Origin: an uncultured cyanobacterium
GTDB lineage: Bacteria; Cyanobacteriota; Cyanobacteriia; Cyanobacteriales; CAWUOF01
Reading direction: 5' to 3'
NCBI GenBank assembly: GCA_963744145.1
Contig: CAVUSO010000001.1
Location: forward strand, 5,696,001-5,760,000
Length of the DNA stretch: 64,000 nt
Shown here piece after piece: positions 30,024-33,000 of this stretch (within the stretch, counting starts at the first letter, position 1; each line of letters begins with the position of its first letter). The position numbers are program-made.

Positions 30024-33000
30024 ATTGAGCTACAGGACTTTTAAAAGCGGATAACGAGAGTCGAACTCGTACCTAGAATTTGGAAGAATCAGATGCTACC
30101 GCTACACCATATCCGCCGATTAAAATGATCAGATTTGGTTTATTTATCTGGCCGAAATCGCCGATCGAACTCTGTAAATATCTTTCTTTCTTCGCTTAGA
30201 TCCAGAACTGAAAATAGGATGCTTTTGAATCTTCCCCAAAACTGTCCTTTTGTTAATAAAAAATCCGCAAACATTTGAGCGACCATTGCCGGATCGTTTC
30301 TGAATACTCCACATCCCCAAGCTCCTAAAACTAAAGCATCACAATGATGGTAAGCAGCTAAACTTAACAACTTAGCACCGCGAACATAGAGAACTTCGCG
30401 AATTTTTCCTTGAGCCGGAGATGGTCTTTTTCTAATTTCACCAGCGTTAGGAGCTGGACTAGTGAAAAAATCCACTTGATGGGGGATTGACAGTAAAGTT
30501 CCATCATCTTTGCGAAAAATTGGACAACTTGGTGAATGAATAATATGATCGGAATATAAAAGTGAGGAAGTAGACCGATGAAAATCATAATATTTAGGAC
30601 ATTTCAATAGACTTTGGTAAAGTCCAGAACTACGTGCTAAACTCTCTTCTTGTGCTTGAGCACCTCTCATAAATCCACCACCAGGGTTTTTAGCAGAAGC
30701 AAAATTGAGAACACCAATTTTGGCAAATTTTTGAGTTTTCGTCATCATTTCTGCTCCGCTCAATGTCGTCTCATTCCTGATGGTAAATTCAGTATTAGTG
30801 AAGGTGGCAGCACTAGCGAGAACTTCGGTTTGGATTTGCTCAAGATCAGCAGGATCGTAACATTTTGTTTGAGCGACACAGAATGCTAAATCTGGCGCTA
30901 TATCCACCCGTTCGCTTTGAGGGGATTGGTAATAACCTGCTGCTAGTATATTGAGAGTATCTTGCGCGATCGCAACTCGCTTCATGTGTTTAAAACTCCT
31001 GATACATATCTCCTTTTTTAAAGTCCAAGCAGGAGGCGAGATTTGAACTCGCATAGGCAGTTTACAAGACTGCTGTGTTGCCATTGACACCACACCTGCA
31101 TGATCAAATACCCCTTGGATTTGAACCTTCCTAAACGAGCTGACTAGACTCGTGCGTGACCACTACTCTAGCCCGCTATGGGTCGAGCTGGATTTGAACC
31201 AGCAAAGCGTTAAGCCGCGGTTTTACAGACCGTCACCTACACCAATAGGTGGGCCGACCCAGAAAAAAACACGGCCCCAACGGGATTTGAACCCGTGTCT
31301 TCTGATCGAAATTCAGAAATCCTTAACCACTAGACGATGGGGCCTTTTGGCAAGGGAGTCGAGCTTTGAACTCGAAGTCTTCGGTTTTGGAGACCGATAT
31401 GTTGCCAGTTACACCACTCCCCCCTATGGTCGCAGCGGTGGGATTTGAACCCACATTTGCTCGGTTATGAGCCGAGGACTTTACCGTTAAGTTACACTGC
31501 AATCTCTTTTAACTGTTTTCCCAACCTAATCTAGCTCACGAGGCTGACGGGTTTCGATCCCGCTACCTTCTGTTCGACAGACAGACGCTCTCCCAATTGA
31601 GCTACAGCCCCATTTAGATCAGGTTTACTTTTTGGGAATTTGGACTTGTTGGCGGTCTACCCAATAGGGCATTACCTGGGTCGGTGATTGCTCGCTTTTG
31701 AGTGAAAACCGCCTTTGTCCAAAAGTGTGTGATATGAAGAATTATTTATTTAGTTTTCAAGGTTCAGTTTCTGGCTAGGGTGAAGCTTTTCGGTTCTTTC
31801 CCTCTCGCCCTATATTTACATACTACAATCATACTACAAAATTGTCAAGGGTTTAGACAAAAAAATTTTTGATTGGCAGCAAAGAGGGCGGAAACCTTAT
31901 GTATAGGTGGGTTTAAGGGTTTGGTTGGTAGTTAGGTTATGGTAGGTGACATGGGTTCGCTGAGGCGATCGCTGGCCAATGGAATGATGATGAAATTATA
32001 AGTGGATTAAAACATCGCCATGACTCAAGGGGCGGATTGAATACGCCCCTTGATACTGCTATCTTTTAGTCTCGTCGAACTGACATTGAAAGCTATAATT
32101 TCAATATAACTTTATATATACTACACTTGTATTATTACTCTATCTACCCCTAAAAGGAGAAAAAATCATGTATACCATTAATCGCACCTCAACCACGGAA
32201 ATGGAAGTAACTAGCATCAGACTGGAAAGAGAACTGAAGGAAAATCTCAAGGACATCGCAGGTGGTCAAGGTTATCAGGCTCTAATTCGAGATATTCTCT
32301 GGAACTATGTACAACAGAAATCGGGCGACTATCGACCTCAATTTTCCCGGACCGATATCCGGGCCAGTATAGCGGCTACAGCCCAACGAGAGGAGCATTG
32401 CGTTCTGACAGGGCAGTTAATTCGACCACAAGAACCGATGTTTTTAGGATTGACGATCAATGGCGATATGGTTCCCTTAAGTGTCAAAAGTTTAGTTGGT
32501 TAGTCAGCCTTAATAATTTTCAAGTAGCCATCGGTATTTTTCTACCGATGGCTAAATTATTACATGAACCATTAGCCGCCATACTGAAAAATAGATCAAT
32601 CAACTCAGAACAGGAAAAACCATGCTGTTATCAAAAGGTTTTGAAGTCGAAATGTATACCGGCACACCCCAGGGAGATATTGTGGGACTGTCTGACCGGA
32701 TTGTCGCTAATTTAGCAGGATTTGTGCGTGAACCTGACAACCGTAATGTCGAATACACTACAGCACCCTTATTTAGTTACGAGCGTTTATTGTGTGCTTT
32801 AGTCCGTCCCAGGTTGCGTTTGCGGGAATATATCAAAACTTTAGGCAATTATACCCTAATTCCCGGCAGTACCATGTCTTTAGGTGGGAGCGATCGCTTT
32901 TTTCGCTCTGATCCAGCTAATCCTTACCACACCTATATTGAGCAAACCTACGGGACAAAAGTGGTCACTTCGAGTATCCATATCAACGTTGGGATTAGTG

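Follow-up and report, generated by a model that had tools for sequence, protein, structure and literature searches.

The window analysed here, a 64-kb stretch of cyanobacterial DNA, carries an array of tRNA genes in which an intact gene for a bacterial-type poly(ADP-ribose) glycohydrolase (PARG) is embedded; the array promoter and the gene for an orthologue of the repressor TrcR adjoin it (Table 1). An earlier note on this DNA had spoken of a long tRNA array. The array in the window has only 12 tRNA genes, ten found by ARAGORN and two more by Rfam, and is one half of a split L-array: nine further tRNA genes lie elsewhere in the same genome (G000:C1:7372835–7374134), and combined the two halves give the canonical order seen in loci L002 and L013. 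The array tRNAs are supernumerary, each array anticodon having a copy outside both arrays. The spacing reported in that note—PARG 42 nt past tRNA-Thr(UGU) and 25 nt before tRNA-Gly(UCC), on the tRNA strand—is confirmed, provided that the stop codon is counted in the 25 nt. The hairpin beyond the last tRNA draws spurious miRNA-precursor matches from Rfam on both strands, and is terminator-like on the + strand only.

Table 1. Features of the array and its surroundings. Coordinates are positions in the 64-kb window; those of the second array half, given in the text, are genome coordinates.
Feature	Position	Strand	Remarks
Long near-perfect hairpin past the last tRNA	29195..29274		Possible bidirectional terminator
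Distal tRNA block: Arg(tct), Ala(tgc), His-like, Ser(tga)	29312..29640	-	ARAGORN; His-like by Rfam only
His-like tRNA	29403-29477	-	Rfam only
Conserved structured RNA, ~200 nt	29676..29880	-	Within the 327-nt gap 29641-29967
tRNA-Gly(tcc) and tRNA-Val(tac), directly 3' of PARG	29968..30117	-	tRNA search
tRNA-Gly(tcc)	30045-30117	-	22 nt past the PARG stop codon, 25 nt including the stop
Bacterial-type PARG gene	30140..30985, including stop	-	281 aa; profile and structure-sequence matches
Thr-PARG spacer, 42 nt	30986..31027	-	GGAG at -15 to -12
Upstream tRNA block: Asp(gtc), Met(cat), Trp(cca), Glu(ttc), Tyr-like, Thr(tgt)	31028..31612	-	ARAGORN; Tyr-like by Rfam only
tRNA-Thr(tgt)	31028-31099	-	Ends 42 nt upstream of the PARG start
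Tyr-like tRNA	31179-31261	-	Rfam only
Array promoter: TTGACA, 17 nt, TAGTAT, two tandem TGTAGTAT boxes over the -10 region	31820..31848	-	
trcR autoregulatory operator (predicted)	32118..32135	+	17 of 18 bases as in the published trcR-promoter motif (PMC10272220)
trcR orthologue, ribbon-helix-helix repressor	32168..32503	+	111 aa; divergent from the array and adjoining it

The PARG reading frame begins with an ATG at 30985 on the – strand, is coding to 30143, and ends with a TAA stop codon at 30140–30142. Its product matches the profiles PF10021 (E 1e-48; 165.9 bits against a cut-off of 23.5) and, over model positions 1–266 of 266, TIGR02452 (E 3.1e-101; 338.4 bits against a cut-off of 50). 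Residues 3–277 align in sequence with residues 4–274 of 3SIG (E 1.3e-65), and the catalytic GGG-X6–8-QEE loop, GGGFMRGAQAQEE at residues 102–114, falls opposite the loop of 3SIG (PGGGF..AQAQEE); by this alignment, the likeness to the solved PARG macrodomain fold appears to run the full length of the protein. All 41 full-length orthologues retain GGG-x7-QEE. Median pS among these 41 is 0.632 and dN 0.227; the median dN/dS for the 449 unsaturated pairs is 0.186, and the maximum 0.37. Selection on the gene is purifying, with dN/dS at about 0.19. Because the protein matches solved PARGs over its full length, keeps the catalytic motif, and has a low dN/dS, the enzyme looks functional. The gene is single-copy, with one PF10021 match in the whole 7.70-Mb genome. 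The earlier note had claimed as much: the PF10021 and 3SIG matches with their GGG..QEE signature were obtained again, the gene is indeed the only one of its kind in the genome, and the invariant motif and the contrast of dN with pS (0.22 against 0.63) now extend to 41 orthologues.

The two TGTAGTAT boxes at the array promoter are exact (31831–31838 and 31820–31827). Exact boxes number six in the window, against 1.39 expected, and three of the six lie at the array promoter and trcR. This promoter, the only promoter-like site on the – strand between 29000 and 32300, precedes the PARG start by ~840 nt, a distance that takes in six tRNA genes; no terminator-like site was found on the array strand from the promoter to PARG, and a scan of the 42-nt Thr-PARG spacer found no promoter-like site. 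The second array half has its own copy of the same promoter, and of 27 related arrays 22 are preceded by a promoter of this architecture. We infer that PARG is transcribed from the array promoter, and that the promoter serving it carries a TrcR-type site; co-transcription with the tRNAs, and processing punctuated by them, are probable in this organism. The TrcR orthologue has leucine at position 44 and alanine at position 72, where the published loss-of-function substitutions L44P and A72D occur (PMC10272220); a Pfam search with its 111 aa gave no match. The predicted trcR operator spans –50 to –33 from the ATG, and the published footprint –53 to –28 (PMC10272220).

Bench work in Anabaena has established that TrcR represses the trn operon and alr1372, a chromosomal gene outside the Anabaena array; TrcR is reported to bind every promoter fragment tested except that of all5040 (PMC10272220). 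Expression of alr1372 rises 12.89-fold in the trcR mutant (padj 3e-38; PMC10272220 Table 1 and supplement), the value that the earlier note had rounded to 12.9. In a bootstrapped tree, the protein that we take to be Alr1372 falls in the same clade as PARG with support of 100/99, and alr1372 is probably the Anabaena orthologue of PARG. It is unlinked and yet belongs to the TrcR regulon, so membership of the regulon does not depend on physical linkage. The same paper lists genes that chloramphenicol induced in an earlier study and whose expression also rises more than 8-fold when trcR is mutated; alr1372 does not appear on that list (PMC10272220), and this counts against a stress-induced reading. 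In the genome studied here, TrcR-like boxes also precede rtcB and a gene for an Rnl-type ligase. A search for TrcR boxes at its KptA/Tpt1, DarT and NADAR genes found none, and this counts against an RNA-repair reading. No box at one mismatch or fewer was found in the 500 nt upstream of the stand-alone orthologues L033, L036, L043 and L046, nor any tandem TrcR pair across those loci, and in L004 the search found a single weak pair. This scarcity of boxes is a further point against the preferred explanation given below. The 8-bp consensus has been published only as a figure, so control of the stand-alone orthologues by TrcR is neither confirmed nor excluded.

The earlier note had tied PARG to a translational-stress operon as its 'conserved, fixed-position component'. 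The tie is strengthened by the promoter boxes, the adjoining trcR and alr1372; the constancy is overstated. The note's counts for 38 related PARG loci (61–79% identity) were obtained again: same-strand tRNAs within 4 kb at 34 loci, all tRNAs being on the PARG strand; 18 or more tRNAs at 28; Thr(tgt) as the nearest upstream tRNA in 26 and Gly(tcc) as the nearest downstream in 26. The order Thr/PARG/Gly likewise holds in 26 of the 38, and since related genomes are not independent all these counts overstate the number of separate events. Elsewhere, PARG lies past the end of the array (L010), between Val and Arg tRNAs (L035), or before Arg(tct) (L023–L025). Homologues of at least 65% identity, five of five in arrays according to the note, include one (L004, 69%) with no tRNA within the 9 kb examined. 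In an even sample of 401 genomes from the phylum, 44 bear arrays and only eight of these have PARG embedded, so arrays work without it; its position is common, not fixed. PARGs from Nostoc arrays nest within the Microcoleus clade, which indicates horizontal spread, and decayed copies are present at L038, L039 and L052. A quick tree hinted that array copies descend from stand-alone ones; the backbone of the bootstrapped tree was unresolved, and the idea was dropped.

What occupies the Thr/Gly junction when PARG does not? In 20 of 36 PARG-less arrays nothing lies at the junction; in eight it holds other genes, and eight have no Thr-to-Gly junction. Macro-domain genes sit at this same junction in seven of the 36, one of the seven being of MacroD type and on the tRNA strand (2x47, E 1.7e-52), and one further PARG-less array has a NADAR gene. 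The junction is a cargo hot spot, then, and it too runs counter to a fixed position for PARG. ADP-ribose hydrolases account for eight of 59 array-embedded ORFs; the entire genome here, 7.7 Mb, has seven such genes. NADAR genes occur in seven of the 38 PARG loci, as the earlier note had counted, and RNA ligase genes in ten, though none in this window. One form of array ligase, of 246 aa, has a homologue in DRB0100, which is the ligase encoded alongside PARG in the Deinococcus operon (28% identity, E 9e-9); no solved relative of the 246-aa form was found by sequence, and a 428-aa tRNA_bind ligase has no BLAST similarity to DRB0100. An extra EF-Tu gene lies in, or at the end of, the array in nine of the 38 PARG loci and four of the 36 PARG-less arrays. 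Arrays also carry RibD_C, GNAT, PIN, HicA, HNH and aspartyl protease genes, which have no evident tie to ADP-ribose; this unrelated cargo counts against an ADP-ribose theme.

The window array contains, in addition, a conserved structured RNA that mimics the sarcin-ricin loop of 23S rRNA and its GTPase-associated centre (H42–H44). Positions 1093–1148 of the Rfam LSU_rRNA_bacteria model match 29737–29792 (E 8.7e-13), and the Rfam search returned no family besides this large-subunit rRNA model. A 13-nt loop motif, AGTACGAGAGGAA, is invariant in 30 copies, and 11 of the 39 consensus base pairs have compensatory changes. Copies occur in 37 of 87 loci; of 151 genomes sampled from the order, 47 have the RNA at full length. 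ORFs of 72–73 aa run antisense to the 327–330-nt gap; they have no Pfam match, overlap the structured RNA, and were rejected as shadows of it.

Two bacterial-type PARGs, SCO0909 and DRB0099, provide the closest experimental guide. According to a 2025 paper (PMC11833690) that the earlier note did not cite, they are the only hydrolases tested that reverse the 2'-OH RNA ADP-ribosylation caused by RhsP2; they protect Escherichia coli from this toxin, and they act on RNA ends ADP-ribosylated at the 5'-phosphate, too. The same paper describes the physiological roles of bacterial PARGs as unknown. A tRNA-specific ADP-ribosyltransferase toxin has also been described (PMC13617354). The reversal of RNA ADP-ribosylation by bacterial PARGs (PMC11833690) gives a link between PARG and a stress operon a concrete mechanism.

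The location of PARG in a stress tRNA operon suggests that it repairs RNA tagged with ADP-ribose by toxins. On the explanation we prefer, and which we rate at about an even chance, PARG is a stress-induced RNA de-ADP-ribosylase, part of a kit that both repairs and backs up the translation apparatus. The gene product would be an active hydrolase of the PARG macrodomain type, made from a TrcR-repressed operon of spare tRNAs. When translation is blocked, repression by TrcR would be lifted and the operon read through; end-processing of the tRNAs, at the 3' side of Thr and the 5' side of Gly, would then free a PARG mRNA with short UTRs. The enzyme would strip ADP-ribose from RNA of the translation apparatus: perhaps from 2'-OH groups on tRNAs and other structured RNAs, or perhaps from the capped 5'-phosphate ends of broken RNAs, which RtcB- or Rnl-type ligases could then reseal. 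PARG would be one interchangeable module of a mobile kit whose others are the spare tRNAs, the rRNA-mimic RNA, the Macro and NADAR hydrolases, the RNA ligases and the extra EF-Tu. Counting against RNA repair, we know of no RNA-targeting ADP-ribosyltransferase from cyanobacterial habitats. A bolder and more tentative version, possible although we would not bet on it, sees L-arrays in general as modular islands against ADP-ribosylation and RNA-damage attacks on the translation apparatus, expressed as one TrcR-controlled transcript. This transcript would deliver replacement tRNAs together with a ~200-nt decoy of the sarcin-ricin loop and GTPase-associated centre; PARG would erase modifications from 2'-OH and 5'-phosphate groups, Macro from phosphate ends, and NADAR from bases; and RNA ligases and spare EF-Tu would restore function.

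PARG might, alternatively, be a working enzyme dropped into a recombination hot spot at the Thr(UGU)/Gly(UCC) junction, perhaps by homing endonucleases that travel with the arrays, with a job that has nothing to do with translation. The low frequency of PARG among array genomes (8/44) would fit such hitchhiking, as would the variety at the junction in PARG-less arrays (20 empty, eight with other genes, eight without the junction), the frequency of HNH endonuclease ORFs and unrelated cargo, the horizontal spread indicated by the Nostoc copies within the Microcoleus clade, and the decayed copies at L038, L039 and L052. We think it unlikely, all the same, for purifying selection on PARG persists across saturated synonymous divergence, the unlinked Anabaena orthologue belongs to the same TrcR regulon, three families of ADP-ribose hydrolase recur in arrays with Macro replacing PARG at the same site, and the pairing of PARG with a ligase recurs in Deinococcus. 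Distinctly unlikely, in our estimation, is that PARG clears ADP-ribose or poly(ADP-ribose) from proteins—EF-Tu, ribosomal or other—rather than from RNA. Hydrolysis of poly(ADP-ribose) is the activity by which the family was defined, 3SIG and 5ZDA bear titles to that effect, and nine of the 38 PARG loci and four of the 36 PARG-less arrays do have an extra EF-Tu gene; enzymes that modify proteins, however, are not among the recurring neighbours, which are RNA ligases, tRNAs and an rRNA mimic, and two bacterial-type PARGs have activity on RNA (Lu et al., PMC11833690). A search of the genome for a PARP catalytic domain found none, a weak argument on the same side, since control genomes gave no match either.

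The modification that PARG removes might come not from competitors' toxins but from ADP-ribosyltransferases of phage conflict, against which array and PARG would guard a mobile element or an infected host. Only the source of the modification would differ, the enzymology being that of the preferred explanation. L-arrays are reported to spread horizontally (PMC8421152), and 20 phage records, from very large phages, include PARG homologues. That of Bacillus phage G (gp114, 41% identity) has an eight-tRNA cluster 5.5 kb upstream of it and an Appr-1-p macro gene 3.4 kb downstream. Three other large phages were checked, however, and none has a tRNA within 10 kb of the homologue; cyanobacterial plasmids and phages yielded no close homologue, all matches being below 60% identity; and the arrays here are chromosomal and controlled by a host repressor. 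We consider this origin quite improbable. A general association of PARG with tRNA genes beyond cyanobacteria was entertained and rejected on a comparison that covered these phages and, of the plasmid matches, those of Deinococcus: it is loose in phage G, and the three other phages have no tRNA near the homologue. Hardly credible, finally, is the idea that PARG and Macro clear away derivatives of ADP-ribose, its 1''-phosphate or the cyclic form for example, which arise when KptA/Tpt1 removes 2'-phosphates in RNA ligation. The genome does have KptA/Tpt1, RNA ligases are frequent array cargo, and the only solved relative of a 201-aa antisense Macro protein is 1NJR from yeast (E 3.6e-5), presumably linked to ADP-ribose-1''-phosphate processing; against this, RtcB-type ligation leaves no 2'-phosphate, the KptA gene has no TrcR box, and we know of no PARG-type enzyme that acts on ADP-ribose 1''-phosphate or the cyclic form.

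If the preferred explanation holds, the locus is a natural setting for RNA de-ADP-ribosylation by a bacterial PARG: a known repressor releases an operon of spare tRNAs when translation fails, and PARG has for neighbours, in arrays, RNA ligases, two other families of ADP-ribose hydrolase and an rRNA mimic. Natural ADP-ribosylation of tRNAs and rRNA, and its repair, would become testable in tractable strains. L-arrays would read as kits for repair and decoy, beyond mere spare parts, and, were they modular islands as outlined above, the PARG of this window would be the first in any bacterium to have its physiological setting defined. The rRNA-mimic RNA may merit a report of its own. TrcR repression of the trn operon and alr1372 (PMC10272220) and PARG activity on ADP-ribosylated RNA (PMC11833690) were known already; new here are the TrcR boxes at the array promoter with trcR adjoining, the split array, the frequency of 8 in 44, the cargo hot spot, the recurring NADAR, ligase and EF-Tu genes, and the rRNA-mimic RNA. 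The text and legends of PMC8421152, as far as available, make no mention of PARG or ADP-ribose hydrolases. Calothrix sp. NIES-4105 (L030) and C. desertica PCC 7102 (L020), both drawn in Figure 6 of that paper, carry PARG, and the gene may already be depicted there, possibly as hypothetical.

Among known systems, the bacterial-type PARGs—3SIG from Thermomonospora curvata, DRB0099 with the 5ZDA series, and SCO0909 from Streptomyces coelicolor—are of the same family and length as this one. The PARG of Deinococcus radiodurans aligns with it from end to end (E about 1e-52, about 41% identity) and shares the GGG..QEE loop. That PARG belongs to an operon induced by DNA damage, however, whereas this one, as read from the sequence, lies between tRNA genes under what would be a translational-stress repressor. 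In D. radiodurans, DRB0100-DRB0099-DRB0098 encode a ligase, PARG and a kinase/phosphatase, PARG being paired with a PF09414 RNA ligase. Calothrix-type arrays resemble this arrangement, with PARG, two tRNAs and then the 246-aa DRB0100-homologous ligase, but tRNA genes separate PARG from the ligase and the arrays showed no polynucleotide kinase/phosphatase. In thrU-tyrU-glyT-thrT-tufB of E. coli, tRNAs share their transcript with a protein-coding gene, and in the tRNA cluster of phage T4 spare tRNAs travel with RNA repair enzymes; here, in contrast, a tRNA gene stands on either side of the coding gene, 42 nt before it and 22 nt after, and the product is an ADP-ribose hydrolase. Also close is the trn operon of Anabaena sp. 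PCC 7120, whose tRNAs are likewise supernumerary and in the same gene order, and whose promoter has the same design, with tandem boxes over the –10. Both genomes have the same TrcR repressor with its operator, and rtcB with the same boxes. In Anabaena, PARG is unlinked to the array and trcR to both (PMC10272220); here PARG lies inside and trcR adjoins, and the array, unlike the trn operon, is split into two loci, each with a copy of the promoter.

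The gene at the centre of this analysis encodes a complete bacterial-type poly(ADP-ribose) glycohydrolase (PARG). Its product scores 1e-48 against PF10021, matches the whole of the TIGR02452 model (3.1e-101), and aligns end to end with the PARGs of Thermomonospora curvata (3SIG, 1.3e-65) and Deinococcus radiodurans (about 1e-52); in both alignments the GGG..QEE loops line up. It is the sole PF10021 match in the 7.70-Mb genome, and the family, structure and single-copy claims of the earlier note therefore stand. Among 41 full-length orthologues—36 array-borne and five alone, with exact duplicates (L041, L042, L044, L049) and five distant sequences left out—the catalytic loop is conserved in every one, and median pS is 0.632 against a dN of 0.227, which bears out the invariant motif and the dN–pS contrast previously described; of the 820 pairs, 449 have a dS of 0.05–1.5, and for these dN/dS is 0.186 (maximum 0.37). 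At three loci, L038, L039 and L052, PARG is decayed or partial.

ARAGORN places 10 tRNA genes around PARG, all on the minus strand from 29312 to 31612, and Rfam adds two that ARAGORN misses. The order is Asp, Met, Trp, Glu, Tyr-like, Thr(tgt), then the PARG ORF, then Gly(tcc), Val, a 327-nt gap, Arg(tct), Ala, His-like and Ser(tga). PARG begins 42 nt after tRNA-Thr, as reported before; the 25 nt formerly given for the spacer to tRNA-Gly holds only if the stop codon is counted, and is otherwise 22 nt. The hairpin after the last tRNA possibly terminates transcription from both directions, serving the convergent phosphodiesterase-like gene at 27026-28975 as well. What the earlier note called a long tRNA array is not that in the window. 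Nine more tRNA genes (Met, Ser(gct), Phe, Asn, Gln, Pro, Leu(gag), Lys, Leu(tag)) lie outside the window at C1:7372835-7374134, and this block, with its own boxed promoter, is the segment that canonical arrays, for example that of locus L002, have between Tyr and Thr. What the window holds is thus one half of an L-array, a long one-strand run of supernumerary tRNA genes, that has been split by rearrangement. The genome has 63 tRNA genes in total, and each array anticodon has a further copy outside the arrays.

Between 29000 and 32300 on the minus strand, the array promoter is the only promoter-like site, and no terminator-like site was found; PARG is probably transcribed from this boxed promoter. 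Six copies of the TGTAGTAT box stand in the window where 1.39 would be expected, and three of the six lie at the array promoter and the adjoining trcR. Related arrays with no fewer than 10 tRNAs and at least 400 nt of sequence before them number 27, and 22 of these share the promoter design upstream: CCCTTGACA, then a tandem pair of boxes in which up to three mismatches were allowed. In the 111-aa ORF beyond the promoter, Leu44 and Ala72 coincide with the positions of the TrcR mutations L44P and A72D, and the operator before it, at -50 to -33, matches 17 of 18 positions of the trcR-promoter operator of PMC10272220, where the published footprint spans -53 to -28. The ORF is therefore trcR, the gene for the repressor of the Anabaena trn operon, lying divergently beside the array. 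TrcR-like boxes, palindromic or tandem, also stand directly upstream of three genes outside the window—rtcB, an Rnl-type RNA ligase, and an ORF of EF-G domains IV-V only—and none were found before the genome's KptA, DarT and NADAR genes. In RtcB, a single 623-aa frame, the Pfam match is broken up, which gives it an intein-like look.

Features of the array, its regulatory sites and its cargo (window coordinates unless prefixed; G000 is the window's genome, C1 one of its contigs, and L numbers are loci fetched for comparison)
Feature	Location	Strand	Remarks
PARG ORF	ATG 30985 to 30143; stop TAA 30140-30142	-	281 aa
Tyr-like tRNA	31179-31261	-	Rfam; long arm, GTA anticodon loop
His-like tRNA	29403-29477	-	Rfam; GTG
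rRNA-mimic RNA	gap 29641-29967 (327 nt); core about 29676-29880	-	between tRNA-Val and tRNA-Arg(tct)
Near-perfect hairpin	29195-29274		~75 nt, after the last tRNA; both strands give spurious miRNA-precursor matches
Array promoter	boxes 31831-31838, 31820-31827	-	TTGACA, 17 nt, TAGTAT and two tandem TGTAGTAT boxes; upstream of tRNA-Asp
trcR orthologue with operator	32118-32503	+	ORF 32168-32503, 111 aa
Second L-array half	G000:C1:7372729-7374134		outside window; duplicate of boxed promoter
rtcB with TrcR-like boxes	C1:2072711/2072722
Rnl-type RNA ligase with TrcR-like boxes	C1:6824219 / 6824265		329 aa
EF-G domains IV-V ORF with TrcR-like boxes	C1:4684632 / 4684670		212 aa
PF09414 RNA ligase, 428 aa	L006:7875-9158 and relatives		N-terminal tRNA-binding domain
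PF09414 RNA ligase, 246 aa	L012:7044-7781 and relatives
Array EF-Tu examples	L010:4451-5677, L058:10364-11590, L070:2686-3912
MacroD-type gene in Thr–Gly junction	L080:6771-7358	tRNA strand	2x47, 1.7e-52

For Anabaena, PMC10272220 gives data on a probable counterpart. Both its Table 1 and its Supplementary Data 2 list alr1372 (837 nt) as a 'TIGR02452 family protein'; the gene rises in the trcR mutant from 11.7 to 150.6, or 12.9-fold (padj 3e-38), and the paper states that TrcR shifted every tested promoter fragment except all5040. Judging from length and name, alr1372 is probably the protein record P0121, a 278-aa TIGR02452 family protein of Nostocaceae. At 90% clustering P0121 groups with a hit 64% identical to the window PARG; in a bootstrapped tree it falls inside the clade of at least 60% identity (support 100/99), where it adjoins the stand-alone copy L046 (100/95).

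When one genome per species was scanned, 38 PARG loci at 61–79% identity came up, and the comparative counts reported earlier were reproduced. Thirty-four loci have tRNAs, in all 34 on the PARG strand, and 28 have at least 18; the nearest upstream tRNA is Thr(tgt) in 26 of the 38, and the nearest downstream is Gly(tcc), also in 26. No tRNAs were found at L004, L033, L036 and L038. An even sample of the phylum gives the wider picture: PF10021 was found in 14 of 401 genomes, all from the order of the window's own. Of the other 13, eight have PARG inside an array on the tRNA strand (as a remnant only in G310, and in an 8-tRNA array in G029), two have a copy of at least 61% identity with no tRNAs nearby, and three have distant copies (37–39%). 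A dense 1.6-kb tRNA block, used as probe with a threshold of our own setting (best E <= 1e-30), found array-like matches in 44 of the 401. PARG is embedded in the array in eight of these and present somewhere in the genome in 11. Among the remaining 357 it occurs in three, including G029 with a short array of its own. Because genomes that are related do not count as independent, these figures are counts rather than tests. They tie PARG strongly to arrays, although the majority of arrays are without it. In each of two genomes of one genus, both among the three with distant copies, the distant PARG paralogue (37%) shares a contig with an L-array and lies ~20 kb away from it (G062:C99 and G388:C81; loci L050, L051, L071, L076).

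Arrays hold other genes too. Scanning of 72 embedded ORFs and tblastn of whole PARG loci found NADAR in seven of the 38, an opposite-strand Macro-domain gene of 201 aa in four, a retropepsin-like protease in four, and PF09414 RNA ligases in 10 (four of the 246-aa form, six of the 428-aa), along with numerous HNH endonuclease ORFs. A full-length EF-Tu gene lies in the array or at its distal end in nine PARG loci, and in four of the 36 PARG-less arrays taken for comparison. In 20 of these 36, Thr(tgt) is followed directly by Gly; eight have no such junction, and in eight the junction is filled, by a Macro-domain gene in seven and by an ORF without a Pfam match in one. The 201-aa antisense form accounts for six of the Macro genes (L067, L069, L071, L074, L078, L087), most of them accompanied by a 147-aa retropepsin-like protease; the seventh, at L080, is of MacroD type and on the tRNA strand. 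One more PARG-less array has NADAR. ADP-ribose hydrolases make up eight of the 59 ORFs embedded in PARG-less arrays; the window's whole genome has seven such genes. The occupation of one site by PARG in some arrays and by a Macro gene in others argues that what arrays retain is an ADP-ribose hydrolase, rather than PARG itself.

Such modules are linked outside arrays, too: L038:6001-6909 has NADAR immediately after a PARG remnant and lacks tRNAs, and at L113 NADAR adjoins a stand-alone copy of the rRNA-mimic RNA described below. Several arrays include a tRNA with a CTA anticodon, labeled Pyl by ARAGORN and amber-suppressor-like (L037:701-774, L093, L094-L096), which in L094-L096 is immediately beside that RNA. 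In Bacillus phage G (L053, 56178-76975), the PARG homologue gp114 shares its strand with two neighbors: a cluster of eight tRNAs lies 5.5 kb upstream of it, and an Appr-1-p macro-domain gene 3.4 kb downstream.

The gap between tRNA-Val and tRNA-Arg holds a structured RNA of ~200 nt whose core is 74–87% identical in 37 of 87 loci, PARG present or not. Mean column identity is 84% over 30 aligned copies, and the RNAalifold consensus has 39 pairs, of which 11 show compensatory changes. Positions 1093-1148 of the Rfam bacterial large-subunit rRNA model match 29737-29792 (45.6 bits, E 8.7e-13), a stretch alignable to the genome's three rRNA operons; Rfam scans of the region matched no other family. 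A 13-nt motif, AGTACGAGAGGAA, is invariant, closed by a covarying 5-bp stem, and equal to the loop of the genome's own 23S gene at C1:798335. We take the copied parts to be the two rRNA sites that translational GTPases contact: the sarcin-ricin loop and the L11-binding GTPase-associated centre (H42-H44). A covariance model found full-length copies in 47 of the 151 genomes sampled from the order, with 52 matches at E <= 1e-10; five genomes have only partial hits, which resemble true 23S genes. Twelve of 20 newly fetched copies are in arrays and eight have 0–2 tRNAs nearby; PARG lies within about 4 kb in five, and NADAR in four. An AT-rich, partly palindromic, promoter-like sequence precedes the stand-alone copies. 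No paper describing this RNA was found in the literature searched. One might speculate that it is a decoy for toxins or antibiotics that act on these rRNA sites, which would fit the rest of the operon.

What might PARG do in such company? According to PMC11833690, the bacterial PARGs SCO0909 and DRB0099, alone among the hydrolases tested, reverse the 2'-OH ADP-ribosylation of RNA by the RhsP2 toxin; they protect Escherichia coli from this toxin and are also active on ADP-ribosylated 5'-phosphate RNA ends. Phosphate ends are a target of MacroD-type and related macrodomains, and guanosine ADP-ribosylation of RNA is reversed by NADARs. The paper describes the physiological role of bacterial PARGs as unknown, and we found no mention in it of cyanobacteria or arrays. 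A toxin that ADP-ribosylates the anticodon loop of one tRNA was reported in 2026 (PMC13617354). The most economical reading, to which we give an even chance, is that the array PARG is a stress-induced RNA de-ADP-ribosylase. It would restore ADP-ribose-modified tRNAs or, alternatively, unblock RNA ends for RtcB- or Rnl-type ligases. The absence of alr1372 from the list in PMC10272220 of genes both chloramphenicol-induced (2021 study) and more than 8-fold up in the trcR mutant counts against it.

PARG could instead be cargo with no tie to translation, which we think unlikely; its substrates could be protein or polymer, which is less probable still; its use in phage conflict is more doubtful again; and the clearing of metabolites seems very improbable indeed. 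We found no link between glycohydrolases or ADP-ribose and tRNA arrays in the text that could be searched, no mention of TIGR02452 outside the TrcR paper, and no follow-up papers on the L-array or TrcR; Figure 6 of PMC8421152 may draw the gene.

The array locus gives a bacterial PARG a testable physiological setting, in an operon that also contains an undescribed rRNA-mimic RNA. In Anabaena, trcR is unlinked to the array (PMC10272220), whereas in the window it adjoins the array promoter divergently. In Deinococcus, the ligase DRB0100 is encoded directly upstream of PARG, and in arrays its 246-aa homologue (28% identity, E 9e-9) is carried as cargo.
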